DNA of 64,000 nt, from NCBI RefSeq assembly GCF_009931435.1, contig NZ_CP043414.1, one strand, 5' to 3'. The DNA is from Escherichia coli. GTDB taxonomy: Bacteria; Pseudomonadota; Gammaproteobacteria; Enterobacterales; Enterobacteriaceae. The notes below the pieces were generated by a model that did no database searches, was not told the origin of the DNA, and worked only from the letters and a program-made list of their open reading frames with translations. The position numbers and the translations under genes were made by a program. This document shows positions 11,524 through 55,925 of the stretch, piece after piece; the stretch's first letter is position 1; each line of letters opens with the position of its first letter.

Positions 11524-11542
11524 GTTATCTAAAATTTATCTA

Positions 11543-35135: not shown

Positions 35136-35220
35136 AGGCCTGATAAGTTGCGACAAGCGTCGCATCAGGCATTTGCTCCAGACGCCAGATGCGGCGTGAA
35201 CGCCTTATCTGGCCTACGGT
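35136..35220. repeat. REP/BIME elements downstream of moeB
   Basis: gcctgataagttgcgacaagcgtcgcatcaggc and gccagatgcggcgtgaacgccttatctggcc, typical REP palindromes. Confidence 0.6.
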
Positions 35221-35302: not shown

Positions 35303-35965
35303 TTAAATCGACGTTCTGCCAAAAGCCCCCTGCCAGTCCTGCTCAAACTTCGCCACGGCGGCGTCAACTGCCGGATAGCTAATCATCTGCTGCGCCACAT
35401 CCAGTGGCAGAGTAATTGATTCACATCCTGCCAGTAAGCAGTCCAGCGCCTGACGCGGGGTTTTAAAACTCGCGGCTAACACTTTCGCCTGCGGCGCATG
35501 CATTTTCAATAACTGGTGTAAATCGGTCACAGTTTGCATACCGCTACCGCCCTGAGCATCAATTCGGTTGACGTAAGGTGCAACGTACTCCGCACCTGCC
35601 AGCGCCGACAGCAGCCCTTGTGCCGCGCCATACACTGCCGTACCCAGCGTCGGAATACCTTCTGCTTTTAACATTTTAATAGCAGCCAGCCCCTCGGCAG
35701 TCACCGGAACTTTCACCACGATATCTGCAATAATAGAACGCAGTTTACGTGCATCATTCACCATCCCTTCGGCAGTGGTAGCCATTACCTGGGCAAACAG
35801 ACGCCCCTGACCGCCCATCGCTTCGTGAAGCTCCGGAAGTACCACCTCCAGCGGTTTTTTACCCGCGGCGATAATACTTGGGTTAGTGGTCACACCCGCC
35901 AGCGGAAAAATACGTGACAGTGTCTTCACCGCAACAACGTCTGAAGTATCCAGATACAGTTCCAT
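35303..35965 (-). CDS. fsaA: Fructose-6-phosphate aldolase 1
   Basis: Trimmed to [14 protein letters not shown] (220 aa); transaldolase-like fold. Confidence 0.9.
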
Positions 35966-36095
35966 AACCATCCTCAAAATGTACTTTTTGTCTGAATGTA
36001 GACTATCACGGGAAAACTCTCTGAACAGTTGACGCACATCAATCTAACTTTCATTCGAAAGTATTTTAATGTTTGAACGAAACAGAGAGGCAACT

Positions 36096-36995
36096 ATGAT
36101 TTTCAATATTCAGCGCTACTCGACCCATGACGGCCCCGGTATCCGCACGGTCGTTTTTCTTAAAGGCTGTTCACTGGGCTGCCGCTGGTGTCAGAACCCG
36201 GAAAGCCGCGCCCGCACGCAGGATCTTCTGTATGACGCACGTCTGTGTCTGGAAGGCTGCGAGCTGTGCGCTAAGACCGCGCCGGAAGTGATTGAGCGCG
36301 CGCTGAATGGTTTGCTTATTCATCGGGAAAAGTTAACCCCGGAGCATCTGACGGCGTTAACCGACTGCTGCCCGACACAGGCGTTAACCGTGTGTGGTGA
36401 AGTGAAAAGCGTTGAGGAGATCATGGCGACCGTTCTGCGCGACAAACCGTTTTACGATCGCAGCGGCGGCGGCTTAACGCTTTCCGGTGGTGAGCCGTTT
36501 ATGCAGCCGGAAATGGCGATGGGGCTACTGCAAACCAGCCACGAAGCCGGTATTCATACTGCGGTAGAAACCTGTCTGCATGTGCCGTGGAAATACATCG
36601 CCCCTTCTCTGCCGTATATCGATCTGTTTCTTGCCGATTTAAAACACGTTGCCGACGTGCCGTTTAAACAGTGGACCGACGGTAACGCCGCCAGAGTGCT
36701 GGATAACCTGAAAAAACTCGCAGCGGCGGGGAAAAAAATCATCATCCGCGTGCCGTTGATTCAGGGCTTTAATGCCGATGAAACCTCTGTGAAAGCCATT
36801 ACCGATTTTGCCGCCGACGAGCTGCACGTCGGCGAAATTCATTTCCTGCCCTACCACACGCTGGGCATCAACAAATATCACTTACTTAATCTGCCCTATG
36901 ACGCCCCGGAAAAACCGCTTGATGCGCCAGAACTGCTCGACTTTGCCCTGCAGTATGCCTGCCAGAAAGGGTTAACCGCGACCTTACGAGGATAA
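36096..36995 (+). CDS. ybiY: Glycyl-radical enzyme activating protein YbiY (PflE)
   Basis: [36 protein letters not shown] (radical-SAM CxxxCxxC); 299 aa from the internal start, 308 aa if the upstream ATG at 36069 is used. Confidence 0.85.
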
Positions 36996-37000
36996 CAACC

Positions 37001-39433
37001 ATGACCACACTGAAACTGGACACGCTCAGCGACCGCATTAAAGCGCACAAAAATGCGCTGGTGAATATTGTGAAACCGCCGGTCTGTACCGAGCGCGCGC
37101 AGCACTATACCGAGATGTATCAACAACATCTCGATAAGCCGATCCCGGTACGTCGCGCTCTGGCGCTGGCCCATCACCTGGCGAATCGCACTATTTGGAT
37201 CAAGCACGATGAGTTGATCATCGGCAACCAGGCAAGCAAAGTTCGCGCCGCGCCGATCTTCCCGGAATATACCGTCTCCTGGATCGAAAAAGAGATTGAT
37301 GATCTGGCGGATCGTCCGGGTGCAGGTTTTGCGGTGAGCGAAGAGAACAAACGCGTTCTGCATGAAGTGTGCCCGTGGTGGCGCGGTCAGACGGTACAGG
37401 ATCGCTGCTATGGCATGTTTACCGATGAGCAAAAAGGCCTGCTGGCGACCGGTATCATTAAAGCGGAAGGTAATATGACCTCCGGCGATGCGCACCTGGC
37501 GGTCAATTTCCCACTGTTGCTGGAAAAAGGGCTTGATGGTTTGCGCGAGAAAGTGGCGGAGCGCCGCTCGCGTATTAACCTGACCGTGCTGGAAGATCTG
37601 CACGGCGAGCAGTTCCTGAAAGCGATTGATATCGTGCTGGTGGCGGTCAGTGAACATATTGAACGTTTCGCTGCCCTGGCGCGTGAAATGGCCGTTACCG
37701 AACCCCGCGAAAGCCGTCGCGATGAACTGCTGGCGATGGCCGAAAACTGCGACCTTATCGCCCACCAGCCGCCGCAGACTTTCTGGCAGGCGCTGCAACT
37801 GTGCTACTTCATCCAGTTGATTTTGCAGATCGAATCCAACGGACACTCGGTATCGTTTGGTCGTATGGACCAGTATCTCTACCCGTACTATCGCCGCGAC
37901 GTTGAACTGAACCAGACGCTGGATCGCGAACACGCCATCGAGATGCTGCATAGCTGCTGGCTGAAACTGCTGGAAGTGAACAAGATCCGCTCCGGCTCGC
38001 ACTCAAAAGCCTCTGCGGGAAGTCCGCTGTATCAGAACGTCACCATTGGCGGGCAAAATCTGGTTGATGGTCAGCCGATGGACGCGGTGAATCCACTCTC
38101 TTACGCGATCCTTGAATCCTGCGGTCGCCTGCGTTCGACGCAGCCTAACCTCAGCGTGCGCTACCACGCGGGAATGAGTAACGATTTCCTCGATGCCTGC
38201 GTACAGGTGATTCGCTGCGGCTTCGGGATGCCCGCGTTCAACAACGACGAAATCGTCATCCCGGAATTTATTAAACTCGGTATTGAACCGCAGGACGCTT
38301 ACGACTACGCGGCGATTGGCTGTATCGAAACCGCCGTCGGTGGCAAATGGGGCTATCGCTGCACCGGGATGAGCTTTATCAACTTCGCCCGCGTGATGCT
38401 GGCGGCGCTGGAAGGCGGTCGTGATGCCACCAGCGGCAAAGTGTTCCTGCCACAAGAAAAAGCGTTGTCAGCGGGTAACTTCAACAACTTCGATGAAGTG
38501 ATGGACGCGTGGGACACGCAAATCCGTTATTACACCCGTAAATCAATCGAAATCGAATATGTCGTCGACACCATGCTGGAAGAGAACGTGCACGATATTC
38601 TCTGCTCGGCGCTGGTGGATGACTGCATTGAGCGAGCGAAAAGTATCAAGCAAGGCGGCGCGAAATATGACTGGGTATCGGGCCTGCAGGTCGGCATTGC
38701 TAACCTCGGCAACAGCCTGGCGGCAGTGAAGAAACTGGTGTTTGAACAGGGCGCGATTGGTCAGCAACAACTGGCTGCCGCACTGGCGGATGACTTCGAC
38801 GGCCTGACGCACGAGCAGCTGCGTCAGCGGCTGATTAACGGCGCGCCGAAGTACGGCAACGACGATGATACTGTCGATACGCTGCTGGCTCGCGCTTATC
38901 AGACCTATATCGACGAACTGAAGCAGTACCATAATCCGCGCTACGGTCGTGGTCCGATTGGCGGCAACTATTACGCGGGTACGTCGTCTATCTCCGCTAA
39001 CGTACCGTTTGGCGCGCAAACTATGGCAACGCCGGACGGGCGTAAAGCCCACACCCCGCTGGCAGAAGGCGCAAGCCCGGCTTCCGGTACTGATCATCTT
39101 GGCCCTACTGCGGTCATTGGCTCGGTGGGTAAACTGCCTACGGCAGCGATTCTCGGCGGCGTGTTGCTCAACCAGAAACTGAATCCGGCAACGCTGGAGA
39201 ACGAATCTGACAAGCAGAAACTGATGATCCTGCTACGTACCTTCTTTGAGGTGCATAAAGGCTGGCATATTCAGTACAACATCGTTTCCCGCGAAACGCT
39301 GCTGGAAGCGAAAAAGCATCCGGATCAGTACCGCGATCTGGTGGTGCGCGTAGCGGGTTATTCCGCCTTCTTCACTGCGCTCTCTCCAGACGCACAGGAC
39401 GATATCATCGCCCGTACTGAACATATGCTGTAA
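37001..39433 (+). CDS. ybiW: Glycyl radical enzyme of PFL family, YbiW (PflF)
   Basis: 810-aa; C-terminal glycyl radical motif RVAGYSAFF. Confidence 0.9.
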   Translation: MTTLKLDTLSDRIKAHKNALVNIVKPPVCTERAQHYTEMYQQHLDKPIPVRRALALAHHLANRTIWIKHDELIIGNQASKVRAAPIFPEYTVSWIEKEIDDLADRPGAGFAVSEENKRVLHEVCPWWRGQTVQDRCYGMFTDEQKGLLATGIIKAEGNMTSGDAHLAVNFPLLLEKGLDGLREKVAERRSRINLTVLEDLHGEQFLKAIDIVLVAVSEHIERFAALAREMAVTEPRESRRDELLAMAENCDLIAHQPPQTFWQALQLCYFIQLILQIESNGHSVSFGRMDQYLYPYYRRDVELNQTLDREHAIEMLHSCWLKLLEVNKIRSGSHSKASAGSPLYQNVTIGGQNLVDGQPMDAVNPLSYAILESCGRLRSTQPNLSVRYHAGMSNDFLDACVQVIRCGFGMPAFNNDEIVIPEFIKLGIEPQDAYDYAAIGCIETAVGGKWGYRCTGMSFINFARVMLAALEGGRDATSGKVFLPQEKALSAGNFNNFDEVMDAWDTQIRYYTRKSIEIEYVVDTMLEENVHDILCSALVDDCIERAKSIKQGGAKYDWVSGLQVGIANLGNSLAAVKKLVFEQGAIGQQQLAAALADDFDGLTHEQLRQRLINGAPKYGNDDDTVDTLLARAYQTYIDELKQYHNPRYGRGPIGGNYYAGTSSISANVPFGAQTMATPDGRKAHTPLAEGASPASGTDHLGPTAVIGSVGKLPTAAILGGVLLNQKLNPATLENESDKQKLMILLRTFFEVHKGWHIQYNIVSRETLLEAKKHPDQYRDLVVRVAGYSAFFTALSPDAQDDIIARTEHML

Positions 39434-39572
39434 TCTCCTTCGCCCGGTAACGGTTGTTGCCGGGCGAAAATACTCATCCCATCGATATTATTTTAATCCG
39501 AAATAAATTTGTGCTCCGCGTCACATTGTCATTACACTGTGGCGGTTTGCATTCATTGTCAGGAGCACATCT

Positions 39573-40388
39573 ATGAGCGTAAAAGTTATCGTCACAGACA
39601 TGGACGGTACTTTTCTGAGCGACGCCAAAACGTACAACAATGAGCGTTTTATGGTGCAATATCAGGAACTTAAAAAGCGCGGCATTGAGTTCGTTGTCGC
39701 CAGCGGTAATCAGTATTACCAGCTTATTTCGTTCTTTCCTGAGCTAAAGGATGAGATCTCTTTTGTCGCGGAAAACGGCGCACTGGTTTACGAACATGGC
39801 AAGCAACTGTTCCACGGCGAACTGACCCGACATGAATCAAGAGTTGTCATTGGTGAACTGCTGAAAGACAAGCAGCTCAATTTTGTTGCCTGCGGTTTGC
39901 AAAGCGCGTATGTCAGTGAGAATGCGCCAGAAGCATTCGTCGCGCTAATGGCAAAACACTACCATCGTCTGAAACCTGTGAAAGATTACCAGGATATTGA
40001 TGATGTACTGTTCAAGTTTTCGCTCAACCTGCCTGACGAACAAATCCCGTTAGTGATCGACAAACTGCATATTACGCTCGATGGCATTATGAAGCCCGTC
40101 ACCAGTGGTTTTGGCTTTATCGACCTGATTATTCCTGGCCTGCATAAAGCGAATGGTATTTCGCGGTTACTGAAACGCTGGGATCTGTCACCGCAAAATG
40201 TGGTAGCGATTGGCGACAGCGGTAACGATGCGGAGATGCTGAAAATGGCGCGTTATTCCTTTGCGATGGGCAATGCTGCGGAAAACATTAAACAAATCTC
40301 CCGTTACGCTACCGATGATAATAATCATGAAGGCGCGCTGAATGTGATTCAGGCGGTGCTGGATAACACCGCTCCTTTCAATAAGTAA
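39573..40388 (+). CDS. ybiV: Sugar phosphatase YbiV (SupH), Cof-type HAD
   Basis: [17 protein letters not shown]; 271 aa; paralogous to ybjI in this window. Confidence 0.85.
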
Positions 40389-40539
40389 CCTTTTCCCGGC
40401 CGGAGCAATCGTTCCGGCATCTCTCTTTTTTGCTCACTTTGTGCACTTACTCAAGATTTTCATCTTGCGTTAACTTATTTTTAACTTAAAGTATCAATCA
40501 TAACTATTTTCACTTTCGAACGAAAGTTGTGAGGTTGAT

Positions 40540-41799
40540 ATGACTTTTACCTATGAGACACTGCCAACAGATGCGAAAACGGCTATCCGTAAGATGAAAG
40601 CGGAGCTGCGACAACAGATCGGCGATGTACAACAGGTCTTCGATAAACTCTCTGCAAAAATCGAAGCACGTGTAGCAGAAATAGACGCCCTCAAAGGGCA
40701 AGGATTACCGGTTTGGCCGGAAGTCCCATATAGCGACGTTGCAGCAGGTACAGTGAGTGAAGCCACGCGCAATGAAATTAAACGTCGCGGCTGTGCAGTA
40801 ATTAAAGGCCATTTCCCCCGCGAACAGGCACTGGCATGGGATCGCGCAATGCTTGACTATCTTGATGCCAATCATTTTGATGATGTTTATAAAGGTCCCG
40901 GCGACAGCTTCTTTGGATCGCTGGAGGCATCTCGTCCTGAAATCTACCCTATTTACTGGTCGCAGGCACAAATGCAGGCGCGACAAAGTGACAATATGGC
41001 GGCGCTGCAATCTTTCCTTAACCGCCTGTGGAAGTCTGAAAGCAACGGCAGGCAGTGGTTTGATCCCGATATTAGCGTGATCTATCCGGACAGGATCCGC
41101 CGCCGCCCACCAGGCACGACGTCTAAAGGTCTGGGTGCACACACTGATTCTGGGGCGCTGGAACGTTGGTTATTACCCGCTTATCAGCGTGTTTTTGCCC
41201 ATGTTTTCAACGGTAATGTCGACGATTACGATCCGTGGGATGCTGCATACCGTACTGATGTTGAAGAGTACACGGTAGATAACACCACAAAATGTTCGGT
41301 GTTCCGCACTTTTCAAGGCTGGACGGCGCTTTCCGATATGTTACCAGGACAGGGATTATTGCATGTGGTGCCAATCCCGGAAGCGATGGCGTATGTTTTA
41401 TTGCGCCCACTGCTGGATGACGTACCGGACGATGAGTTGTGTGGGGTCGCTCCTGGCAAAGTTCTGCCCATTTCAGAGAGATGGCATCCACTACTGATTA
41501 AAGCACTCACTTCCATTCCAGCTATTACAGCGGGGGATTCCGTCTGGTGGCACTGCGACGTGATCCACTCCGTCGCACCGGTAAATAATCAACAAGGCTG
41601 GGGGAATGTGATGTATATCCCTGCCGCGCCGATGTGTGAGAAAAACCGGGCTTATGCGCATAACGTCAGGAAAGCACTGGAAAAAGGGGCATCACCGGGC
41701 GATTTCCCTCGAGAAGATTATGAAGCAAACTGGGATGGCCGATTTACGCTGGATGATCTGAACATTCACGGTAAGCGCGCGCTGGGCATGGATGTTTGA
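40540..41799 (+). CDS. ybiU: YbiU (DUF1479 family protein)
   Basis: 419-aa ORF in the conserved position. Confidence 0.8.
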   Translation: MTFTYETLPTDAKTAIRKMKAELRQQIGDVQQVFDKLSAKIEARVAEIDALKGQGLPVWPEVPYSDVAAGTVSEATRNEIKRRGCAVIKGHFPREQALAWDRAMLDYLDANHFDDVYKGPGDSFFGSLEASRPEIYPIYWSQAQMQARQSDNMAALQSFLNRLWKSESNGRQWFDPDISVIYPDRIRRRPPGTTSKGLGAHTDSGALERWLLPAYQRVFAHVFNGNVDDYDPWDAAYRTDVEEYTVDNTTKCSVFRTFQGWTALSDMLPGQGLLHVVPIPEAMAYVLLRPLLDDVPDDELCGVAPGKVLPISERWHPLLIKALTSIPAITAGDSVWWHCDVIHSVAPVNNQQGWGNVMYIPAAPMCEKNRAYAHNVRKALEKGASPGDFPREDYEANWDGRFTLDDLNIHGKRALGMDV

Positions 41800-41884
41800 G
41801 AGGTGATGGATTAGTAGAAGTGAATTGATGTGAGGTTAAGAAAGCAGGTTCGGTGTTGCTCTGATTGCTGACAAAGTGCGCTTT

Positions 41885-42045
41885 GTTCATGACGGATGCG
41901 GCGTTAACGCCTTATCCGGTCTACAAAGTCCTGAAAATTCAATATATTGCGATACGCTGTCAGGCCTGATAAGCGTAGCGCATCAGGCAATTTTGCATTT
42001 GTCATCAGTTTCAGTAGCCCTGACCCTATCAGGGCTACTGATAAT
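41885..42045. repeat. REP elements plus an 11-bp-stem hairpin between ybiU and ybiT
   Basis: cggatgcggcgttaacgccttatccggtctac, ctgtcaggcctgataagcgtagcgcatcaggca and agtagccctga-ccctat-cagggctact. Confidence 0.6.
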
Positions 42046-45956: not shown

Positions 45957-46420
45957 TTGGCACCGTGTTTCTGGGTAAACAAACGAAAGGCATCCAGCGT
46001 CTCTTCACTAACATGGTGCTCCATGCCTTCCGCGTCGCGACGGGCGATTTCCGGACTGACGCCCAACACCAACAAGAAATTTTCGACTATCTGATGTCGC
46101 TCGCGGCTTTCCTGCGCCAGTTTCTCTCCTTCTGCCGTTAAAAACACGCCACGCCAGGGGATCATTTCAATCAGCCCCATGGTTGCCAGTCGTTTGAGCA
46201 TTTTAGCCACCGTCGGTTGCGAAACGCCCAGACGAGCAGCCATGTCCACCTGACGAGCTTCCCCCACTTCCCTGATCAAGTCAGAAATCAGCTCAACGTA
46301 ATCATCAATAAGCTCGCGCCGGTGTGCCTCTCTGACCTGGCGGAACCCTTCAACGTGCTCTTCCACATTCACTAACTGCGTCACTTTTTTTGCTGTTGGC
46401 GTACCTGCGCGACGACTCAT
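45953..46420 (-). CDS. mntR: Manganese-responsive transcriptional regulator MntR (DtxR family)
   Basis: 155-aa [43 protein letters not shown]; 4-nt overlap with ybiR. Confidence 0.9.
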
Positions 46421-46511
46421 TGTGCTTCCTCATTATGGTGACGCATACATAGCGTTCTCATTTCGTGCGCACATTGTAAACCAGAGTTGCGAAGGTACAA
46501 AAAATTAACGT

Positions 46512-46546
46512 TTTAGCAATAGCTATATAATATAGCCATTGCTAAA
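46512..46546. promoter_or_regulatory. 35-bp near-perfect palindrome about 95 bp upstream of mntR; candidate operator
   Basis: tttagcaatagctatat-a-atatagccattgctaaa, 17-bp arms with one mismatch, read directly; centre is TATA-rich. Confidence 0.4.
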
Positions 46547-46824
46547 TACATAAAATCAAATAAAATCATAATGTTAACAAAACAAAAAAAATAATCAATG
46601 TCGCAAAAATGTCTCACAAAACAAAAGCCATAACTTATTTGCTTGTTTTTTTATAGTGTCAGTATTAATCTAGTATATCAAAATGTTATCACTTCAATTA
46701 TTCTCTGCTTAACATTTATTTAAGAAATAATATTTTTAAGCTCTTTAAAAAAACCTTAAATAACGCTGATAGTTTCTTAGGAAAACTTAACGATAGTGGT
46801 AAATTAATCCCAAAGGACTAAAAA

Positions 46825-48060
46825 ATGGTATTAAGTAACTGTATTCAATGTCAGTCATGCAAATTTATATATAGAGTTAGGGTTGGTATTGGGTTTGATA
46901 AATACCAAAGACATTATATGGACTGTTTTGAGTGTAATATTCCTATTGTTTTTGCTATACGAACAGACCCACCAAATGCTTATCTTGAAGCGGAAGAAAA
47001 CTGCCTAATTGTTGAACATAGTACAGACCACAAGGTTGTTAACTTCCATCCGGGATGTGCTTTTAATAAAGATGAGATACATCAGTCACTGATATTCCCA
47101 TCTATTGAATTGACACAAATGATTCATAAACATATGAGGATGCCGAAAGGACAACGCCTTATAAGTGCCTCTCATCAATTTGATATTCCCAACGCCCCCT
47201 CCAAATGGAATTATTTAAAATCAATAATAAAACTTATTAATGAAGGAAAGAAAGACAAAGCTCAGAATACAGCAAAGCTTTATATGCAATCAAGAAATAA
47301 AGAGTTACCTTTGTATAATGAAGATGATAGCTATTCCTCTACATCTCTAATCTATGAGTTTTTAGATTGGCTTTTCTATCCTCGAGTACATGATATAGCC
47401 GATTCCATTAAAAAAACAATTGATGACCTTAAAGAACAAAATTTGTTGGATGATTTTTACGCTTTCTATAAAGAAAATTTAAAATCCGAAAATGAACAAA
47501 GATACATCAATATAATATCAGATTTCATGGCTCGTAGAGATCATTTCGGGCAGTTAATCTATTACGCAAGAATTAACAACGATGCAATAGACGATAAGAT
47601 AATTAGCTCTAAGAACTTCGATAATGTAAGAAATTATTATGGAGATGCTTATGAAAGTCTGACATCTAACATGACTATTTTAGCATGTATTAATAACATC
47701 GTCAGTGGAAGGGCATTCGATCAGTTCAAGCAAATGACATTGAATAAATACATAAAGGATGTAAATAAAGACAGTAAAACAAACCCATTTAAGGACAACC
47801 CTTTATTTAGCGCATTTTGTGAAGATGATTTAGAGTCAGCAATAAGAAATGGTTCTCATCATGCCTCTATATGGCATGACGGAGAGAGTATTCGATATAG
47901 AAGTGGCGGAACTGGCGCAGAAAGAGAAATAAGCTATACAAAATATATTCACCTTTGTAATAAGCTAACTCTTAAAATCGTAAGTTTGTGGTTAATTGAA
48001 CTTCATATCCAACATATTTACGAAAAAGATGATAATAGCTATGCATGGTTTCATCTTTAA
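46825..48060 (+). CDS. Hypothetical protein, 411 aa, AT-rich cargo gene with N-terminal Cys cluster (possible zinc ribbon); function unknown
   Basis: Long ORF with AAGGA RBS 8 nt upstream of ATG; sampled lines are about 28-37 percent G+C versus about 50 percent in flanking genes; N-terminus CIQCQSC...CFEC; rest rich in K/N/D/E/Y; no family recognised by eye. Confidence 0.6.
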   Translation: MVLSNCIQCQSCKFIYRVRVGIGFDKYQRHYMDCFECNIPIVFAIRTDPPNAYLEAEENCLIVEHSTDHKVVNFHPGCAFNKDEIHQSLIFPSIELTQMIHKHMRMPKGQRLISASHQFDIPNAPSKWNYLKSIIKLINEGKKDKAQNTAKLYMQSRNKELPLYNEDDSYSSTSLIYEFLDWLFYPRVHDIADSIKKTIDDLKEQNLLDDFYAFYKENLKSENEQRYINIISDFMARRDHFGQLIYYARINNDAIDDKIISSKNFDNVRNYYGDAYESLTSNMTILACINNIVSGRAFDQFKQMTLNKYIKDVNKDSKTNPFKDNPLFSAFCEDDLESAIRNGSHHASIWHDGESIRYRSGGTGAEREISYTKYIHLCNKLTLKIVSLWLIELHIQHIYEKDDNSYAWFHL

Positions 48061-48116
48061 GTTAAATATTTGATTCACTAATTTTCAGTTTCTACTCACT
48101 CTAATGATTGTACATA

Positions 48117-48143
48117 GCCCGCACCATTCTTGGTATTGCGGGC
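48117..48143 (+). terminator. Weak hairpin downstream of the 411-aa gene
   Basis: gcccgca-13 nt loop-tgcgggc followed by ttt. Confidence 0.3.
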
Positions 48144-48553
48144 TTTCAGCCGTTTATATCACTTAACGCAATTAGATCATGCAACTTTACACAATATGGT
48201 TTTTTCTATTATTTTTCAGTTGGTTGAATGGATTAGCCATCACACAACTGATCTATAAAACTGAAAAACACTGAAATTCTTTTCAATCTTTTCAGTGGCA
48301 GCTCTCCGGCAAACCGCCAACAGTGGCGCAGCCTGACGCTCACGTTTGTAGAAAAATAAAACTGAAAAATTTTATCGATCCAGAAACCGCAGGCGGGTGC
48401 GGTGTAGTGCCATTTTGGTCTGCGAAAGATTTATTTTGTCAGTGCGTAGTGCCGTCAGCGCAACGTGACAGCACAGATCCTTTTGTGGTGTTACGGGATG
48501 GTGGTCAGAGAAAAAAAGTGCTTAGAATGCTTCTGGTTGCGTGAGAATACAGG

Positions 48554-48579
48554 TATAAAAAACCCGCACTAGGCGGGTA
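48554..48579 (-). terminator. Rho-independent terminator of the 84-aa gene (minus strand)
   Basis: Plus strand reads aaaaaa-acccgc-actag-gcgggt; on the minus strand this is a perfect 6-bp GC stem followed by a T-run, directly after the ORF stop. Confidence 0.55.
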
Positions 48580-48589
48580 CTAAAGAGAG

Positions 48590-48844
48590 CTATTTCATTT
48601 CGTTAAGTGCGTACGCACCTCTATCAGTGAGTGCAAAAAAGCCATCCCTTACGCTGGGTTGAATCAACCCAAACATACGCAATTCACCCAGTATTTGTTC
48701 TGAGCGACTACCAGCACCAGAATGCTTAATTAGTGCAAATTCAGGCTGTGCTTCTTCACTGAGCAAAGTCAATATTTTGACAATGGCGTCACGTTTGCTT
48801 TCATCTGCAATGTCATGGTATGGATTGATGGAACAGGTTACCAT
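48590..48844 (-). CDS. Hypothetical small protein, 84 aa, monocistronic
   Basis: ORF MVTCSINPYHDIADESKRDAIVKILTLLSEEAQPEF... bounded by terminator-like hairpins on both sides; separate transcription unit from the tail operon. Confidence 0.45.
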   Translation of the reverse strand: MVTCSINPYHDIADESKRDAIVKILTLLSEEAQPEFALIKHSGAGSRSEQILGELRMFGLIQPSVRDGFFALTDRGAYALNEMK

Positions 48845-48984
48845 AGTGTTTTCCTTTTTTTATGAAAATCATATTTTACCATATCCCAACACGCCATATT
48901 GAAGTGCTCAATATTCACTCACCCTAAAAGGTATCTGTTGTGCAATCAGTTCCCCTACTCCCAGGTATCGCGGTTAAACAGGTA

Positions 48985-49010
48985 TCAAAAAGCCGCATTA
49001 TGCGCGGGCT
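48985..49010 (-). terminator. Candidate terminator of the prophage tail operon
   Basis: Imperfect GC hairpin (gcccgcgcataatgcggc on the minus strand) followed by a T-run, a few bases after the stop of the 567-aa gene. Confidence 0.4.
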
Positions 49011-49020
49011 GATGGGATGA

Positions 49021-50724
49021 TCAGGCGATGATTTTCTGGTACTTACTTCGGGTCTGTCCTGCTTTCTCTGCTGTCTGGGTAAATGCTCCGGCATTGGTTG
49101 GCGTACCAACACTGGGGTGCGAATGACTCGCACATTGCTGCGCCAGCTCTGCCAGTAAATCAATGGTGTCCAACATCATGGTCAGCGTGTTTACACTCTC
49201 ACTGCCGATATGGATGGTTGGCCCCATAATCTGCTGACCGCCCGATGCTACCGATTTGCGTAATGCAGTAATCTTTTCAGTCAGGCTTTCGCCAACCTCC
49301 ACGGCTACAGCACCGCCCACTTTAATGGACTGCTGTCCTGCTATGTCCGTTTCTTCGTTTCCTTCAATGCTGGCCAGCCTGTTACCTTTCACGGCCTGGC
49401 TAAAATCCCCGGCACTGACCTGCTGAATGGCTCCGGCTAGCAGGGTGGCGGTCCCCACCACAATGGTTTTATCCGTGGCTTTAACCGTGGTTTCGCGACT
49501 GACCAGATCACGTTGTTCTGTATCTGCTTTTACCGTTCGCACCATCGATGTTTCACTGATGGTCTGATCGGTCTGCCTTACCCAGTCACCCGCCAGAGTC
49601 ACCCTCTGGGATACTTCTTCCCGCTGCTGCTGCAATTGCTCACCGGGTTTAACGTCCGGCAGACTGGTGCCATCCGGTAGCGTCTGCCTGATAAAAGGTT
49701 TATCCGGTCTGCCTCCTGTGAATGCGACCTCAACCAGCGTCCCTTCTGGCGGGAACTGAAACATACCTGAATCATTCCCGGCCATTGGTACCGGCAGCGG
49801 CACCGCTGAATAAACAGGCGTCTGATTGTCCGGATTTCCGTCTGCGTCAAGCAGCTGCACGTCCACGGCGTAACGTGGCCGGAAGGGATCGGCAAAGTTA
49901 CCGCTTTTTACCGGCTCTGAATGCGCCACGACTCTGGCCATCTTTGGCAAATGAAGCCCGGATGCCAGTTCCGGGTAATGGCTTTCAATCTGCCGTTGCG
50001 CTGGTGTTTTCTGCAAAGGTTTACCCGTTGCGCGGTTTCTCGGCGTCCATGTGATCGCCATCGTGTCATTAGTCAGGTGAACTTTAGTCACGCGTTCACC
50101 GTTCATCTCCACCCCTGGCCGCATAGTCTGGATCACTGGTAATGTCACAGAGTTACCGCCAGCAGCCCCCTGGCTGAACTCTGACGGGATTTCTACTGGA
50201 CGACCGGCAAACAATGACTTTTCTGCGCCGCCGACGTAAAGCGAACCATCAGGTAACTGGTACCAGATGTAATCCTGGATACTGAACGCCCTGCCCAGAT
50301 TGTTCAGCAACTGATAACCAGTACCGTTATGGGTAAAATGTGGGATGGGGGTATCGCTGTACTGTGCATCAGGCACACTGACCGTGATCCCGCTGTTTTC
50401 TTCCAGCCAGCCCGCAATTTCACGCAAAGTCGGGTGTTGAAACGAACATGGCCACATCCTTTCAAACACACCTACCAGCTCACGAATGAATAGGCGCTGA
50501 AAACCGTTTTCAGCGGGCTGCGATCGCTCCACATACCCCGTAAACCAGCGCAAAAGCAGATCGGTATACCCCACATCCAGCCGCACCAGTTTTCCGGTGT
50601 AATCGGTTGTTGTCTCTGCGGTGATGAAGCCCCGGCCGCAGCTGTTCAGCTCCAGTACCAGGCTGACATCCACCAGGTGAACTTCATCCGTTGAAAGGTA
50701 AAGACGTTTTACTGGTTTCATCAT
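49021..50724 (-). CDS. Phage baseplate hub/spike protein (gpD/VgrG-like), 567 aa
   Basis: Last gene of the tail operon; C-terminal third is a low-complexity V/T/G/S-rich repeat region typical of beta-helical spikes; call is by architecture and context only. Confidence 0.5.
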   Translation of the reverse strand: MMKPVKRLYLSTDEVHLVDVSLVLELNSCGRGFITAETTTDYTGKLVRLDVGYTDLLLRWFTGYVERSQPAENGFQRLFIRELVGVFERMWPCSFQHPTLREIAGWLEENSGITVSVPDAQYSDTPIPHFTHNGTGYQLLNNLGRAFSIQDYIWYQLPDGSLYVGGAEKSLFAGRPVEIPSEFSQGAAGGNSVTLPVIQTMRPGVEMNGERVTKVHLTNDTMAITWTPRNRATGKPLQKTPAQRQIESHYPELASGLHLPKMARVVAHSEPVKSGNFADPFRPRYAVDVQLLDADGNPDNQTPVYSAVPLPVPMAGNDSGMFQFPPEGTLVEVAFTGGRPDKPFIRQTLPDGTSLPDVKPGEQLQQQREEVSQRVTLAGDWVRQTDQTISETSMVRTVKADTEQRDLVSRETTVKATDKTIVVGTATLLAGAIQQVSAGDFSQAVKGNRLASIEGNEETDIAGQQSIKVGGAVAVEVGESLTEKITALRKSVASGGQQIMGPTIHIGSESVNTLTMMLDTIDLLAELAQQCASHSHPSVGTPTNAGAFTQTAEKAGQTRSKYQKIIA

Positions 50725-51269
50725 TAATCCAAAGCATCATTGACGGGCTTCAGCACCTTGCGTTCAAACCACGTCAGTTTTTCTTCATCCTCTCCGGCAG
50801 ACTGGCCACCGAACTGCCCCGCACTACCGGCAGTCTGTTTTTTTGCGGTCGTCTTACCTGTTGCCCTGGCCTCTCGCTTTTCCTGCACGCTGATATGTTC
50901 AGCCAGTGTGAATGTCACCAGCCAGGACATTTTCCCGTCCTGCTGGGGCGCATCCAGCATTCCGCTGAACGTTGCTTCACGAAAATTAACAGCACGGGCA
51001 ACTTCATGCGCCACGCGGTACTTCTGACGATTACCACTGGCATCGGTAGCACTGGCCAGCTCAAAAATACGCTTCAGTATTTCAGGCTGTTTAAAAGGTA
51101 TTTCACCGCTGATCCGCAGTTCCTTTCCCTTTGCTCCCTGCTCTGATTTTGTTGTGGCACTGGTCTGGCCGGACTGATCTTTATCCTGAAATTGCTGTGA
51201 AACAGTCACCCGCATGTTTTTCAGCTGGATGGCCTCGCCATTAAGCGCCAGTGTCGGGATCGAAGTCAT
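50724..51269 (-). CDS. Phage tail-associated protein, unknown function (181 aa)
   Basis: ORF translationally coupled (ATGA overlap) to the hub gene; no family recognised. Confidence 0.4.
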   Translation of the reverse strand: MTSIPTLALNGEAIQLKNMRVTVSQQFQDKDQSGQTSATTKSEQGAKGKELRISGEIPFKQPEILKRIFELASATDASGNRQKYRVAHEVARAVNFREATFSGMLDAPQQDGKMSWLVTFTLAEHISVQEKREARATGKTTAKKQTAGSAGQFGGQSAGEDEEKLTWFERKVLKPVNDALD

Positions 51270-52002
51270 GAATCATTCCCTTTATTCCATCAAGATTATC
51301 GCCAACCAGCATCATGGCTGCGGTGTAAACGGCAGACTGCTGCGGAATGTCCTTCACCAGTTCCAGTAACGTTGTGCCGGTGTCTCCGCTGGCAGTAAAA
51401 ACCCACGCTCTGGCACTCTTCCCCTGTAAGTCATTCAGGCCGCTGGCCACATCACTGATAAGCTGGTCACGCAGCTGCGTGAACTCGCCCAGCTGTTTTT
51501 TCAGCCCTTCGATATCAAATCCGGCACCCGCCACCTTTTGTGCCTGGTTGATTGCCGCAGCAGATAAAGCTGCCCTGCTGGTTGGTACAGACAGTGGAAT
51601 GGACGCAGGTAACGCTGCGGCGGTTTTCGCCGGGATCTGCATCTTTTCAATAGCCAGCGCTGCGGCGGATTGCGCCAGCCGTTTTACCTGCGTGAATGCC
51701 GGGGCGGGGAAAATCCCGACCAGGTTATTCAGGCTGGCCATAAAGTTTTCCTGCGTCTGTCCGGTGACCATCATAATCACCACGTCCACATTCCCCCCAG
51801 TTCCGGCCAGGCGTTCAGCAAGATAGCGAACAGCATTAACCGGGCTGAGATATGCCCCGTTCGCTGTCTGCTGTCCCAGCCCATAAATCCACGGATGCGC
51901 AGGGACGATCGAACAGTTCAGCGCAGCAACAGAATCCGTGAAGGCCAGACGTGCTTCACGCCACATTTCCAGGCACCTCCGGCCACACAATTTCCGGCGC
52001 AT
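51241..52002 (-). CDS. Phage tail-associated protein, unknown function (about 240-253 aa)
   Basis: Ala-rich ORF overlapping both neighbours in the tail operon; true start may be the internal MWREARLAF. Confidence 0.4.
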   Translation of the reverse strand: MRRKLCGRRCLEMWREARLAFTDSVAALNCSIVPAHPWIYGLGQQTANGAYLSPVNAVRYLAERLAGTGGNVDVVIMMVTGQTQENFMASLNNLVGIFPAPAFTQVKRLAQSAAALAIEKMQIPAKTAAALPASIPLSVPTSRAALSAAAINQAQKVAGAGFDIEGLKKQLGEFTQLRDQLISDVASGLNDLQGKSARAWVFTASGDTGTTLLELVKDIPQQSAVYTAAMMLVGDNLDGIKGMIHDFDPDTGA

Positions 52003-52543
52003 CTTCCGCTTGAATACGATTCAGTAAAACGCGGTATTTTTTCCATGCGGTAAGTAACAATGTTTCTTCCTGGCTCGCCATGCCTAAAACAACAGCATCC
52101 TGCAATGTGGCAATGGCAGTATGGGCCTGTTTAAGCAGTCTTATCTTTTCCAATTCTGCCTCACGGGTTAATGCAACTCGCATAGACTCAGCATCATCCT
52201 CCCATTTACTGCCATTCCATTTTTGCCATGCGTTTTCAGGCTCCAGAGTAGTTGTTCCAGCTGGATAATCCCCTGGTGCTGTTATCACGAACCTTCTAGC
52301 GTCTTTCGTATCAAATACAATTTCGCCACGGTGATCTTTAATAGCAATCCATTTCTGTTTTTCTGTATTAAAAATTGCCACGAATCCGTCTTTTGTTAAT
52401 GGAGGTTTAATTGTGGTGCAATTGGCTGGTAGTCCTGTGTGAGCGGGAATAAAAGCGTTATCACTACCAATAAACTCATTCGTCTCAGAATGAAGTTTAT
52501 AAACAGTAACTGTTTGATCGATATCACTCATTTTAAATATCAT
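51956..52543 (-). CDS. Tail fibre assembly protein (Tfa/Mu U-like)
   Basis: [43 protein letters not shown]... and C-terminal EETLLLTAWKKYRVLLNRIQAEDAPEIVWPEVP closely resemble K-12 cryptic-prophage Tfa proteins. Confidence 0.8.
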   Translation of the reverse strand: MIFKMSDIDQTVTVYKLHSETNEFIGSDNAFIPAHTGLPANCTTIKPPLTKDGFVAIFNTEKQKWIAIKDHRGEIVFDTKDARRFVITAPGDYPAGTTTLEPENAWQKWNGSKWEDDAESMRVALTREAELEKIRLLKQAHTAIATLQDAVVLGMASQEETLLLTAWKKYRVLLNRIQAEDAPEIVWPEVPGNVA

Positions 52544-54150
52544 TAAGCGAGTCTCACGATATAGTTTAATGCAATGTTTTTAACAGTGTTTTCTGAAGTA
52601 CCCGCAGCATTAACCGTAATGGTGTGTCCATGCGAACCAATCGCAACAGAGTGCGTATGAGCACCAATACCGACAGTATGTTTATGCTCCCCAGCACTTG
52701 CTGCAGTACCTGATACCGAGTGGGTGTGTGCGCCCGCAGAATTCGTTGCACCTAAGTGAGTTTGAGCAGAGTTCGACGAAGCTACTCTACCGGAGCTAAC
52801 GTTAGCATTATCTCCCTGAGATATCGGATGTGTATGTGCACCTGCTGAAGCAGCTGTTCCGCTAACACTATGGGTATGAGCACCAGTGTTATTCGTAGAT
52901 TTAGTTCCATAATCAAACGATGATGTGGTTTTTGTCCCTAAATCGGTATTTGAGGCACTGGCGCTATGGGTATGTGACTTAATATTATCCTGTTCATAAG
53001 ATAATACGGCACGTCCGCTGTTAGGCTTACCTTTAATCGTCTGCCCGCGCATATCAGGAATAACACCCAATGGATACGCAGCAGCCAATAATGGATATAC
53101 TGCCTTATCAAAAGACTGCCCCTGCATAATTGCCCAGCCAGGAGGTGGAATATCTGCTGGCCATGGAAGTGGAACACCAACCGGCAGAACATCACTACGA
53201 CTTAAAACGGCCAGTTCACCCAGCTCCAGGCTTTTTCTTGCTTTCACCTTGTCGCTAACATCAGCAAGGTTTGCATCCTTACGCAAAAAATCGCTGCTGG
53301 CCTGCTGTTCTCCCAGGCTACCCTTTGGCCGTAAATCCGTGATGTTGCCATCCGCATCAATGCTGGCCACAGCAAACACATAATGCTGAACCCCGTTCTG
53401 AACATAATCAGCAAGATTTGCTGCCACCGTGATTTTGCTCTGCACATTCCAGACACTGGTCAGTGTCCCTGTCCAGCACACATCCAGCCAGACTTTTACC
53501 GGCTTTGTCGTTACCGTAATATTCTGATTCGCAGCCAGTGACGCACGAAGTCCAGCCACATACCCCGTGCCTTTCGTGACAAAAAACTGATTGCCGGTTT
53601 TGGCTACCAGATACCCGTTACCAAAAAACGCCGCCGCGCCATAAATATCCATATTTTCCAGGCGCTGGCGTTCATCCATTCCGGCCAGACGTGCAGTAAA
53701 ATCAATCTGCCATGTTTCAGCGGGTGTATTAATCCCGGTTTCCGTTTGTGCGCCATTGTACTCCATCAGAAACGAGCGGGTCAGCACGTTCCCCTGTTGA
53801 CCTTCTTTTGTTTTCAGTTTCTGCTGTGATGGTGCATGGACAATCATTGCCAGCGTACCGCTGGCCTTATTGAGCAGACCGATCCAGTTAAAACTGAAAT
53901 CACCCACATCTGCGCCCAGCACTACGGAATAGACCACACCGTTTTCATCCACCACACCGGTGCGGGTAACAGACTGCCGGTGAACAATCTGTGCAGCCGG
54001 TGGTAATGTTTCATTGCGGTCAACAGGTGTATCCGGGTTTAAATCCGGCACACTGGCAAAAACAAATTCATCCAGTAGTACCGGTTCACCCGTTGCGCCC
54101 TGCTGCGCTTTCCAGTTTTCAAACGCCAATGTGATGGCTGTCTGTGACAT
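52543..54150 (-). CDS. Tail fibre protein (gpH / side-tail-fibre family) with His-rich receptor-binding tip
   Basis: 535-aa; C-terminus ...[23 protein letters not shown]...[63 protein letters not shown] matches the conserved Stf/Mu-S type C-terminal domain. Confidence 0.8.
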
Positions 54151-54160
54151 AAAAACCTCC

Positions 54161-54754
54161 TTACAAACTCGCGCTGAATGTTGCGCTGCGGGCTTCCGTC
54201 CCTGCTAACGTCGCCGGGTAAACCACATATTCCCCCTGACCCCACCCGGCCCTGATAACCAGGCTTTCAGGCGTGATCACCTCAAACTGATAACGGCGGC
54301 ATGTTCGCCCGTACTGGCGGATTATCTGGATCAGCAGCTGCGTGTTGTCTGCAATCTGGCTGTCTGTAACCCGAACCAGAATCACATCCCAGTCGATATC
54401 CGGTTGCCGTTCGAACAGCTCCACATAACCAATTCCCAGCCGTTCAAAGATATTGATAAACCCCTCAACTGAACCAGCATCCCGCGCATTCACGAAGGCA
54501 AAAGCCACACGTTTGCGGAACAGGGTCAACGGTTCACCATCAAAGCGGGTGATATCCCGGTCATAAGCCAGCAGGTTCAGTAATGCCGGTGTACACGTCA
54601 GCGGATCAAACTGATTCATTGGCCAGGTAATCCAGCCGTAAACCTCAGCCCAGAACCGCCGCGCCGTTTTCAGCAATTTCCCCGGTTCGCCTTTATTCAT
54701 CCAGGACGGCAGGAACATCCCGGCCAGCTTTTTCATGAACTCATTCATTCTCAA
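54161..54754 (-). CDS. Phage tail protein I-like (baseplate component)
   Basis: 197-aa ORF between the J-like and tail-fibre genes; [11 protein letters not shown] motif resembles gpI-family proteins. Confidence 0.55.
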
Positions 54755-55925
54755 TATTCACCGTCAGTGATTTCAGACGCGGCACGCTCAGTTCACTGGT
54801 AATGTCTCCCAACGAAAATGTCAGTGATTCCGTCTGTGCAAAGGTTTTATGAATTTCCCGCCCCAGTTGCGAAAAGGAAAACCGCGAATATGGCCACGTC
54901 TTTCTGACGTCATAATCAGCATTTTCACGAAAGGCACAGCGGATCATGTTTTCAATGCCGCCCTTCAGCGTTTTCACCTCTTCGTCACTGAAGTTGTTCA
55001 GATTTTTGACATAAACTGTGACGGCCAGATCGTGAAGAGTTTCCGGCATGGGATAGCACTGCATATCATCACCATGCCCGTGGTGCCCCAGCGTGTTGAT
55101 ATAGTCATTCACCGCATCCACGAACGGCGCTGATGCCACCCCACTGTCCAGTAATAAAAAGGCGTTGGCTGTTCCTGGCCCCCTCGGTGCTTCATGCTCA
55201 AAGAAAATCCGATCGATACTCAACCCGGCAACACTGGCGATCATTGAGCGATAAACCGCATCAGTGTGGTAATTCCCCACCAGATTGAACTGATTGCGGC
55301 AACGCTCGCGCAATTCATCATCACTTTCCTCGTCAGCCCCCGGCACTGTCAGCCAGTTTTCCTCACTGGCCACATGGCTGATACCACTGACCGCCATCGG
55401 CAGAATGCGGTAATATCCGGGCGCAAGGTTATATGCGCCCCCGGTGCCAGTGGCTTTCACCGGCAGTAATGCGCTGGCCGCGCCGGAAGCGATCACCACA
55501 TCCTCAGTGGTGGCCAGCTCATACACTCGCCCGTTAATGCGTTCTGTCTGGATAACCGTCCCGGCGTTGACCGTCACAACGGCCTTTGCATCTTCTTTGA
55601 AGAACCGAATAACCCCCTGCGCAGCGCTCGCTGGTTTTGCCGTGACGTTCACCGCCCATGCCAGCAAACGCAACATGCTCCCGCTGGCTGTGGCCACAAA
55701 CATATTGGCCAGCACGGTTAACACCAGAACGTCTTTAAGCCACATCACCGGGGCGGTCACAATGGCGGTGATTAATCGCCAGAACGGTGACATTCGGGAT
55801 GTATTGGTGATAATTCCCTCATCTGCTGCAATTGCATTGAAGCGTTCCCGCACTTCGGCTTCCGTTACCGGCATACCGCTGTCTTTCACCACTTCTTCAA
55901 AATCAACCTGCGGTTTTTCCGTCAT
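54741..55925 (-). CDS. Baseplate J-like protein (gpJ/gp47 family)
   Basis: Start placed at MTEKPQVDFEEV, which forms an ATGA overlap with the upstream W-like gene; size and position typical of baseplate J. Confidence 0.7.
   Translation of the reverse strand: MTEKPQVDFEEVVKDSGMPVTEAEVRERFNAIAADEGIITNTSRMSPFWRLITAIVTAPVMWLKDVLVLTVLANMFVATASGSMLRLLAWAVNVTAKPASAAQGVIRFFKEDAKAVVTVNAGTVIQTERINGRVYELATTEDVVIASGAASALLPVKATGTGGAYNLAPGYYRILPMAVSGISHVASEENWLTVPGADEESDDELRERCRNQFNLVGNYHTDAVYRSMIASVAGLSIDRIFFEHEAPRGPGTANAFLLLDSGVASAPFVDAVNDYINTLGHHGHGDDMQCYPMPETLHDLAVTVYVKNLNNFSDEEVKTLKGGIENMIRCAFRENADYDVRKTWPYSRFSFSQLGREIHKTFAQTESLTFSLGDITSELSVPRLKSLTVNIENE

Follow-up and report, generated by a model that had tools for sequence, protein, structure and literature searches.

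The ybiY-ybiW operon of Escherichia coli as a very probable anhydroglycolysis locus with predicted FNR and YciT sites

Introduction

Which substrate does the glycyl radical enzyme YbiW act on, and what links it to the aldolase whose gene, fsaA, lies next to the ybiY-ybiW operon? This question is raised by a stretch of 64,000 nucleotides of the E. coli contig NZ_CP043414.1, referred to here as the window. Public annotation still lacks the function of YbiW and can mislead: RefSeq names the protein 'glycyl radical protein' or 'putative pyruvate formate lyase', and a 2026 preprint still terms ybiYW functionally unannotated. The physiological role of the fructose-6-phosphate aldolases (FSA) was called 'enigmatic' in 2020 (PMC7767278). 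An earlier note, made from the sequence of the window, described YbiW as functionally unassigned with an unknown substrate, an understandable error in view of the generic RefSeq and NCBIfam labels and the preprint, and named literature with a definite substrate as evidence that would speak against this description. Such literature exists: Ma et al. (J Am Chem Soc 2024;146:26187, pmid 39283600) assigned 1,5-anhydroglucitol-6-phosphate (1,5-AG6P), as summarised in PMC12441222, and the description is out of date. Since the substrate was published in 2024, the function of YbiW is no longer an open question; the roles of YbiW and YbiY are already known, and the window adds nothing new on the enzyme itself. 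With a probability of roughly nine in ten, the operon serves the published pathway termed 'radical-mediated glycolysis' or anhydroglycolysis.

Gene organisation and family membership

The operon and the divergent aldolase gene comprise the following features:

35303..35965, minus strand: fsaA, fructose-6-phosphate aldolase 1 (220 amino acids; assigned by NF009296 and identity to K-12)
36096..36995, plus strand: ybiY, radical-SAM activase of the glycyl radical enzyme (299 amino acids; assigned by TIGR02494, CX3CX2C and identity to K-12)
37001..39433, plus strand: ybiW, glycyl radical enzyme, 1,5-anhydroglucitol-6-phosphate ring-opening C-O lyase (810 amino acids; function assigned by K-12 orthology)
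39439..39468, plus strand: strong stem-loop without a U tract directly after the ybiW stop codon (-24.4 kcal/mol, z-score -5.3)

The operon extends exactly from the ybiY ATG at 36096, with GAGAGG 6 nt ahead of it, to 39433, the last base of the ybiW TAA (39431-39433). An upstream ATG at 36069 is formally possible as start of the ybiY reading frame; however, it lacks a Shine-Dalgarno sequence and RefSeq uses the 299-amino-acid form. A gap of 5 nt separates ybiY from ybiW, whose Shine-Dalgarno sequence is GAGGA. The hairpin behind ybiW was not called by the terminator scan and possibly acts as a 3' end stabiliser or a weak terminator. As the earlier note had stated, fsaA is a neighbour of the operon; it is transcribed divergently from ybiY, with 130 bp in between. 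FsaA reaches 451 bits with NCBIfam model NF009296 (cut-off 306), is 97.7% identical to its K-12 counterpart and contains the catalytic Schiff-base lysine K85.

The proposed activase and enzyme also stood up to profile searches. YbiY belongs to the glycyl radical enzyme activases (TIGR02494, PFLE_PFLC: 364 bits, cut-off 174) and contains the radical-SAM motif CX3CX2C (C25/C29/C32) as well as a second cysteine cluster (C51/C55/C58). YbiW is a member of the PFL2/glycerol-dehydratase subfamily (TIGR01774: 1402 bits, cut-off 678) with the Pfam domains PFL-like and Gly_radical (PF02901 and PF01228). The motif RVAGYSAFF spans residues 783-791, with G786 as the radical glycine, and the Cys loop GCIE provides C441 and E443; loss of the catalytic glycine or cysteine, the other finding named as contrary evidence, was thus not seen. 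Several more specific models were not reached by YbiW, namely those for HypD (528 bits, cut-off 1100), CutC (461 bits, cut-off 1050), sulfopropanediol dehydratase (518 bits, cut-off 1000) and PflD (PRK09983: 579 bits, cut-off 1109), and NCBIfam release 20 holds no equivalog model for YbiW.

Orthology and conservation

The genes of the window are intact, near-identical orthologs of the K-12 genes. YbiW matches K-12 YbiW (b0823) over its full length with 802 of 810 residues identical (99.0%), and YbiY is 98.0% identical to K-12 YbiY (b0824), with six substitutions; gene order, the 5-nt spacing, the divergent fsaA and the intergenic motifs are likewise the same in K-12. The eight differences in YbiW (positions 22, 80, 184, 232, 235, 474, 653 and 769) are conservative, none lies in or beside a catalytic motif, and V653I is also present in the close homolog 6xs4. 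A PDB search retrieved 8id7 and 8yjn, two crystal structures of the K-12 enzyme named 'Probable dehydratase YbiW', as matches along residues 1-810 with E = 0. Nucleotide divergence from K-12 amounts to 3.4-4.5%, which is above the usual value for core E. coli genes. The ybiW codons differ by 100 synonymous and eight non-synonymous changes, which indicates strong purifying selection. The operon is carried by 5425 of 5426 complete E. coli genomes, in line with the core-genome status that had been proposed. The fsa/ybiY-ybiW module is also kept across Enterobacterales: fsa lies divergently beside ybiY-ybiW in six of seven other genera, in each case in an unrelated genomic context. In Kosakonia, fsa is absent and the FNR-type box described below is degenerate.

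Function in anhydroglycolysis

FsaA and FsaB reportedly cleave the product of YbiW and of its paralog PflD, and a GldA step is reported, too; the hint that had been drawn from the aldolase neighbour, an anaerobic pathway for a sugar or sugar derivative, was therefore right, and it agrees with the 1,5-anhydroglucitol (1,5-AG) pathway as summarised in PMC12441222. According to this summary, Ma et al. found that YbiW converts 1,5-AG6P to 1-deoxyfructose-6-phosphate by ring opening, that PflD forms the same product from 1,5-anhydromannitol-6-phosphate (1,5-AM6P), that cleavage of the anhydrohexitol phosphates needs the glycyl radical and that the pathway enables anaerobic growth on 1,5-AG. Moreover, hydroxyacetone is accepted as a donor by FSA (PMC7767278). 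The substrate assignment made here is based on the secondary summary PMC12441222, the 'probable dehydratase' names in the PDB and the reported FsaA and GldA steps, and conversion of 1,5-AG6P by the YbiW protein of the window is predicted from orthology to K-12.

In the proposed mechanism, YbiY would use its [4Fe-4S] cluster and S-adenosylmethionine to generate a stable radical at G786 in YbiW, from where it would move to C441. The C441 thiyl radical may then take the C2 hydrogen of 1,5-AG6P, and the ketyl radical formed in this way could lose the ring oxygen at C1 by beta-elimination, as in diol dehydratases. E443 and H165 are the putative acid and base of this ring opening. Return of the hydrogen would yield 1-deoxyfructose-6-phosphate. 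Its cleavage by FsaA would give hydroxyacetone and, as the fragment that enters glycolysis, glyceraldehyde-3-phosphate. Expression is proposed to be under the control of FNR, as anaerobic activator, and of the DeoR-type repressor YciT, acting at a conserved palindrome.

A comparable system is the paralogous K-12 cluster pflD-pflC (b3951/b3952; PDB 8yjo), which also codes for a glycyl radical enzyme and its activase and adjoins fsaB, gldA and frw PTS genes, so that an Fsa aldolase gene is clustered in both cases. PflD and YbiW yield the same product (PMC12441222, a summary of the original work); however, they share just 40% identity, PflD acts on the C2 epimer of the YbiW substrate, and pflD lies before the gene of its activase, the opposite of the arrangement in ybiY-ybiW. 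In addition, the pflD cluster includes frw PTS genes and adjoins yijO, which codes for a putative DNA-binding regulator, whereas the ybiYW cluster contains no transporter gene.

It is improbable, albeit the best of the alternatives, that 1,5-AG6P is merely a good substrate in vitro and that another anhydro- or deoxy-hexitol phosphate is the main substrate in the gut. With its sugar phosphatase of broad specificity and its uncharacterised dioxygenase, the regulon would be compatible with this; however, growth on 1,5-AG depends on the pathway, and the existence of a separate paralog for the C2 epimer argues for tight specificity (both as summarised in PMC12441222). The 87-93% identity of YbiW across Enterobacterales also fits a single conserved substrate.

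Even less probable is the function at which the label 'probable dehydratase' might hint, namely that YbiW is a B12-independent dehydratase of glycerol or 1,2-diols. The nearest characterised non-orthologous structures are indeed the glycerol dehydratase of Clostridium butyricum (1r8w, E 5.7e-163) and a diol dehydratase (5i2a), and all three enzymes share the Cys/Glu/His/SNGHS framework. In the proposed comparison of the active site with characterised glycyl radical enzymes, G786, C441/E443, H165 and SNGHS of YbiW align with the catalytic residues of 1r8w, which also has the same fold, glycyl radical and Cys-x-Glu loop. The chemistry, a beta-elimination from a ketyl radical, would be analogous as well, yet the leaving group of YbiW is a ring ether, whereas 1r8w acts on a small diol and has no aldolase partner. 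The pocket segment behind the Cys loop differs, too (WGYRCTGMSF in YbiW, GWH--DSAFF in glycerol dehydratase), and its Asp is not conserved. Furthermore, no dehydratase equivalog model was reached at its cut-off, and the conserved neighbour of ybiYW is an aldolase for C6 phosphates rather than a propanediol or glycerol utilisation cluster.

PflB and PflA belong to the same superfamily and have the RVxGY motif and radical-SAM activation in common with YbiW and YbiY; however, PflB performs C-C cleavage, its Cys loop, like that of pyruvate formate-lyases (PFL) in general, contains a Cys-Cys pair, and PflA lacks the extra ferredoxin-like Cys clusters found in YbiY. A formate-lyase function of YbiW with pyruvate or 2-ketoacids, implied by the K-12 RefSeq name, by several PDB and NCBI entries termed formate C-acetyltransferase and by the Pfam architecture, is the least credible reading: the equivalog TIGR01255 gave 161 bits (cut-off 994), PFL structures, including PflB, align only partially, from residue 254 onward (E about 1e-43), GCIE with its single Cys and Glu is of the eliminase/dehydratase class, and a different substrate has been published (summarised in PMC12441222). 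Taken together, 1,5-AG6P ring opening in anhydroglycolysis is the preferred function of YbiW.

Predicted control by FNR and YciT

The region between fsaA and ybiY contains the following candidate elements, whose arrangement as promoters is a prediction from conservation in an eight-genus alignment:

36002..36007, minus strand: candidate -10 of fsaA, GATAGT (TATACT in other genera)
36029..36042: FNR-type box TTGACgcacATCAA, with a 9/10 match to TTGAT-N4-ATCAA
36047..36062: operator O1, palindrome ACTTTCATTCGAAAGT, predicted YciT (DeoR-type) site upstream of ybiY
36065..36073, plus strand: candidate -10 region of ybiY (TTTAAT / TAATGT, choice of the hexamer ambiguous), based on conservation

The half-sites TTGA and TCAA of the box are identical in seven of eight genera, while the four middle bases vary. 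Judged by its sequence, the TTGAC...ATCAA box is a candidate FNR site for anaerobic activation. A CRP site in its place was ruled out because the half-site reads TTGA and not GTGA in all genera. In the candidate -10 of fsaA, which lies 31 nt from the box (centre to centre), the positions matching A2 and T6 are invariant across the eight genera; in the -10 region of ybiY, this holds for T36065, A36068, A36069 and T36070. TTTAAT is located 32 nt from the box (centre to centre), which corresponds to class II geometry and would place the transcription start of ybiY near 36077. A generic sigma-70 scan returned a sole hit, which is weak and shares bases with the start codon. No paper linking ybiY with FNR was found in the literature searched. 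The ybiYW promoter was active anaerobically in a Reg-Seq preprint, which also reported a pair of footprints near -5 and -20 relative to a predicted start site. These footprints fit the FNR-type box and O1 only if the start used there lies about 20 nt upstream of the one predicted here near 36077.

The core of O1, CTTTC-TTCGAAA, is invariant in eight genera, whereas the surrounding intergenic region has a mean identity of 66%. The full ACTTTC-N4-GAAAGT palindrome is kept in six of the eight; Mixta (GCTTTC) and Brenneria (GAAATA) differ at outer positions. It is predicted to be the operator of the DeoR-type regulator YciT: ChIP-exo revealed YciT binding at the fsaA/ybiY region, with ybiV as a further target in K-12, deletion of yciT led to elevated ybiY and ybiW expression, and YciT-like genes adjoin the module in four genera.

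Downstream genes and a possible regulon

Further features are located downstream of the operon:

39573..40388, plus strand: ybiV, Cof-type HAD sugar phosphatase (271 amino acids; TIGR00099, 216 bits)
40399-40418: terminator-like hairpin after ybiV, found by the terminator scan
40512..40527: operator O2, second exact copy of the palindrome, ACTTTCGAACGAAAGT, 13 nt upstream of the ybiU start codon
40540..41799, plus strand: ybiU, Gig2-like/DUF1479 protein (419 amino acids; Fe(II)/2-oxoglutarate dioxygenase fold)

In the window, ACTTTC-N4-GAAAGT occurs solely as O1 and O2, even if two mismatches are allowed. In K-12, Yokenella, Mixta and Pantoea alhagi, genes similar to ybiU are preceded by matching sites; ybiU is probably part of the same regulon as ybiYW. 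The ybiU gene of the window is a rare, foreign-looking allele, a difference from K-12. Among the orphan genes close to the prophage, scans with PADLOC and Pfam revealed no defence system.

A profile search of the PDB with YbiU retrieved DUF1479 entries only, and fold comparison was used instead. It was done with an AlphaFold model built from a 46-sequence alignment, as a 6-sequence alignment gave a pLDDT of 41 and was discarded. The model has the double-stranded beta-helix fold and the HxD...H metal triad of PhyH-type Fe(II)/2-oxoglutarate dioxygenases. Distant homologs of YbiU sit on short contigs with uninformative neighbourhoods, and no function of YbiU was found in the literature searched. 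YbiU may take the place of the oxygen-sensitive YbiW under aerobic conditions; a possible reaction is the C1 hydroxylation of 1,5-AG or 1,5-AG6P to a hemiacetal, i.e. glucose or glucose-6-phosphate. The complete proposal, in which fsaA, ybiYW, ybiV and ybiU form one YciT-controlled 'anhydrohexitol' regulon with the FNR box on the fsaA/ybiYW arm and YbiU as O2-dependent counterpart of YbiW, is a long shot. An aerobic enzyme that degrades 1,5-AG has not been identified so far according to the summary in PMC12441222; if the proposal were true, YbiU would be this missing enzyme.

Conclusions

The pathway of YbiW, established in 2024, explains what the Fsa aldolases do in the cell, a physiological role that had long been a puzzle. 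Its substrate derives from 1,5-AG, a food- and host-derived sugar analogue, which exceeds all other polyols of human blood in abundance and serves as a clinical marker of glycaemia, and whose 6-phosphate is toxic in two inherited neutropenias. YbiW allows gut Enterobacterales to ferment this compound, and what the locus still offers is a testable hypothesis that would place the orphan dioxygenase YbiU in one pathway with YciT and FNR as regulators.

The ybiY-ybiW operon and its conservation

The interval 36096-39433 extends exactly from the ybiY start codon to the ybiW stop codon, and the operon lies next to the gene for fructose-6-phosphate aldolase 1:

35303-35965, minus strand: fsaA, with K85 present; divergent from ybiY, 130 bp apart
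36096-36995: ybiY, radical-SAM activase, 299 aa; GAGAGG Shine-Dalgarno sequence 6 nt upstream
37001-39433: ybiW, glycyl radical enzyme, 810 aa; GAGGA Shine-Dalgarno sequence; starts 5 nt past the ybiY stop codon

An in-frame ATG at 36069, which lacks a Shine-Dalgarno sequence, is another possible ybiY start. YbiW carries the glycyl radical motif RVAGYSAFF (G786) and the cysteine loop GCIE (C441, E443), and reaches 1402 bits on the NCBIfam model TIGR01774 (cut-off 678); YbiY contains the CX3CX2C motif (C25/C29/C32) and a second cluster (C51/C55/C58), and scores 364 bits on TIGR02494 (cut-off 174). Both proteins thus exceed their subfamily cut-offs twofold. The operon is found in 5425 of 5426 complete E. 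coli genomes. The earlier note's description of a PFL-family glycyl radical enzyme with a dedicated activase, encoded in the core genome beside fsaA, is therefore real and confirmed in full, and its reading of the aldolase neighbour was insightful. Assignment of YbiW as PFL itself is ruled out by a score of 161 bits on TIGR01255 (cut-off 994), and no other equivalog cut-off is reached among the NCBIfam profiles.

YbiW is identical to its K-12 counterpart at 802 of 810 residues, and the genes differ by 100 synonymous and only eight non-synonymous codons, which argues for strong purifying selection. Across the Enterobacterales, YbiW orthologues are 87-93% identical and bear generic names throughout. 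The divergent fsa/ybiY-ybiW module is also present in Yokenella, Yersinia, Mixta, Brenneria, Pantoea alhagi and Enterobacillus, in each case in an unrelated genomic context; fsa is absent at the Kosakonia ybiY-ybiW site. In K-12, the paralogous pflD-pflC genes are clustered with fsaB, gldA and frw PTS genes. The recurrence of the fsa module and the location of pflD-pflC beside fsaB support a functional unit of radical enzyme, activase and aldolase.

The segment 33000-40400 (moeA-moeB-fsaA-ybiYW-ybiV) shows 89-97% nucleotide identity to K-12, a divergence exceeding that of typical E. coli core DNA, with proteins 96-99% identical; ybiYW has at most 99.0% identity in every complete E. coli genome. 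A 1047-aa database protein (P0009) matches 92% of the YbiW query at 99% identity and additionally contains YbiV-like HAD domains. It probably stems from read-through of ybiW into ybiV, or from an artefact of assembly or a frameshift, and is unlikely to be a genuine fusion.

Substrate and catalytic mechanism of YbiW

The substrate question was answered in 2024, so the function of ybiYW is already known. According to a summary of that study (Ma et al., JACS 2024) in PMC12441222, 1,5-anhydroglucitol (1,5-AG) and 1,5-anhydromannitol enter the cell and are phosphorylated through a PTS, and 1-deoxyfructose-6-phosphate is produced from 1,5-AG-6-phosphate (1,5-AG6P) by YbiW and from 1,5-anhydromannitol-6-phosphate by PflD. 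The summary also states that cleavage of the anhydrohexitol phosphates requires the glycyl radical, and that the pathway enables anaerobic growth on 1,5-AG in E. coli as well as in many gut bacteria. The earlier note had called the substrate unknown and would have given this up on publication of a definite one; with 1,5-AG6P assigned, according to that summary, the statement is outdated.

YbiW residues 1-810 match PDB entries 8id7 and 8yjn ('Probable dehydratase YbiW'), and the structure of the paralogue PflD has been solved (8yjo). FsaA and FsaB reportedly split 1-deoxyfructose-6-phosphate into glyceraldehyde-3-phosphate and hydroxyacetone, the latter being reduced to 1,2-propanediol by GldA. 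These steps agree with the acceptance of hydroxyacetone as a donor by FSA, whose physiological role was still 'enigmatic' in 2020 (PMC7767278).

YbiW and the B12-independent glycerol dehydratase 1r8w share the glycyl radical motif, the Cys-x-Glu loop, a histidine (H165) and SNGHS; past the cysteine loop, however, YbiW reads WGYRCTGMSF and the dehydratase GWH--DSAFF. By analogy with what is established for glycyl radical eliminases, the activase YbiY would generate the radical at G786, from where it would be relayed to C441. Abstraction of hydrogen at C2 of the substrate would yield a ketyl radical, which would expel the ring oxygen from C1, and return of the hydrogen would give the 1-deoxy-2-ketose.

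Annotation lags behind the literature: RefSeq NC_000913.3 still lists b0823 (K-12 ybiW) as 'putative pyruvate formate lyase', and NCBIfam release 20 contains no equivalog for the functions of YbiW or PflD. The 2026 version of a preprint describes ybiYW as lacking functional annotation (bioRxiv 10.1101/2025.05.13.653802).

Predicted regulation in the fsaA-ybiY intergenic region

Aligning the sequences that precede ybiY in eight genera (mean identity 66%) revealed three conserved features, the first two being:

36029-36042: FNR-type box TTGAY-N4-RTCAA; half-sites identical in seven of eight genera, centre freely variable
36047-36062: palindrome ACTTTCwTTCGAAAGT; core invariant in all eight genera

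The third consists of candidate -10 hexamers in both orientations, at a centre-to-centre distance of 31-32 nt from the FNR-type box; the invariant positions of the fsaA-side hexamer are exactly A2 and T6. Such an arrangement corresponds to the class II type of FNR promoter, and one box may thus act on both fsaA and the divergent ybiY.

The ybiYW promoter is active only anaerobically and is repressed by the DeoR-type regulator YciT, which overlaps the RNA polymerase footprint; an activator footprint, to which no factor is assigned, lies about 15 nt further upstream (Reg-Seq preprint). YciT was also located at ybiY/fsaA and ybiV (ChIP-exo study). The spacing of box and palindrome is predicted to be right for the two Reg-Seq footprints, a match that requires the Reg-Seq start site about 20 nt upstream of the start predicted here. 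Furthermore, a DeoR-type gene adjoins the module in Yersinia, Mixta, Brenneria and Pantoea alhagi. In the first three, its products are 57-60% identical to YciT and score 373-387 bits on the YciT model, below the strict cut-off of 450 and far above the next family (about 150 bits). Such comparative evidence links YciT to the ybiYW module.

Other features of the window

The ybiU allele (40540-41799) is rare: among 5426 complete E. coli genomes, only 16 carry it at an identity of 99% or more, and 228 others match it at 80-90%. The common K-12-type allele (4086 genomes) shares about 74% nucleotide and 82% protein identity with it, and 1096 genomes lack a ybiU match. When 40400-41900 is compared with K-12, identity falls from 92-97% in the flanks to 62-76%, and the drop coincides exactly with ybiU, a pattern that resembles xenologous allele replacement. 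Further features are:

11448-11526, plus strand: RybB sRNA gene
35137-35214, minus strand: naRNA4/CssrE-type REP element between moeB and fsaA
41880-42040: REP/BIME-like repeats between ybiU and ybiT, which cause multiple BLAST places per genome
about 46400-64000: P2/HP1-like prophage inserted directly after mntR, with tail, baseplate, tape measure, holin, terminase and capsid genes

At least 80% of 43901-64000 is found in only 24 of 5426 genomes (best NZ_CP106924.1, 99.4%). Orphan ORFs at the mntR-proximal prophage end (46825-48060, 411 aa; 48590-48844, 84 aa) have no Pfam or PADLOC match.

A second copy of the predicted operator, and YbiU

Another copy of the palindrome precedes ybiU, and further ACTTTC-N4-GAAAGT sites occur in the compared loci:

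40512-40527 (window): exact half-sites, 13 nt before the ybiU start codon
L004: 4078-4093 and 5098-5113
L005 (Yokenella): 9490-9505
L007: 4125-4140
L011: 4129-4144

The 64-kb window contains no third site, even with two mismatches. The palindrome also lies upstream of ybiU-like genes in K-12, Yokenella, Mixta and Pantoea alhagi, and it precedes ybiV in K-12. The motif upstream of ybiY and ybiU, conserved across genera, is predicted to be the YciT operator.

In Yokenella (L005 10783-14433) and Kosakonia (L010 11085-14433), ybiU is followed by genes encoding a LacI-type regulator, a sugar transporter of the MFS type and a GH31 glycoside hydrolase; an alpha-amylase and/or a glucose-type PTS EIIBCA is encoded nearby in Mixta and Pantoea alhagi. 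Since GH31 includes the alpha-glucan lyases that yield 1,5-anhydrofructose, these neighbours could represent upstream steps supplying anhydro-sugars.

Crystal structures exist for YbiU, a Gig2-like/DUF1479 protein, and an HxD...H motif is almost fully conserved among 46 diverse members of the family; no assigned function was found in the literature searched, and no FNR-like box upstream of the gene. Since an oxygen-requiring enzyme shares the predicted operator with the oxygen-sensitive YbiW, YbiU might form an aerobic branch on the same substrate pool, an idea we consider rather improbable. The shared predicted operator would place this orphan dioxygenase in the anhydroglucitol-pathway regulon, and of everything described here only the predicted operator, the FNR-type box and YbiU, all of them outside the original finding, might deserve more work.
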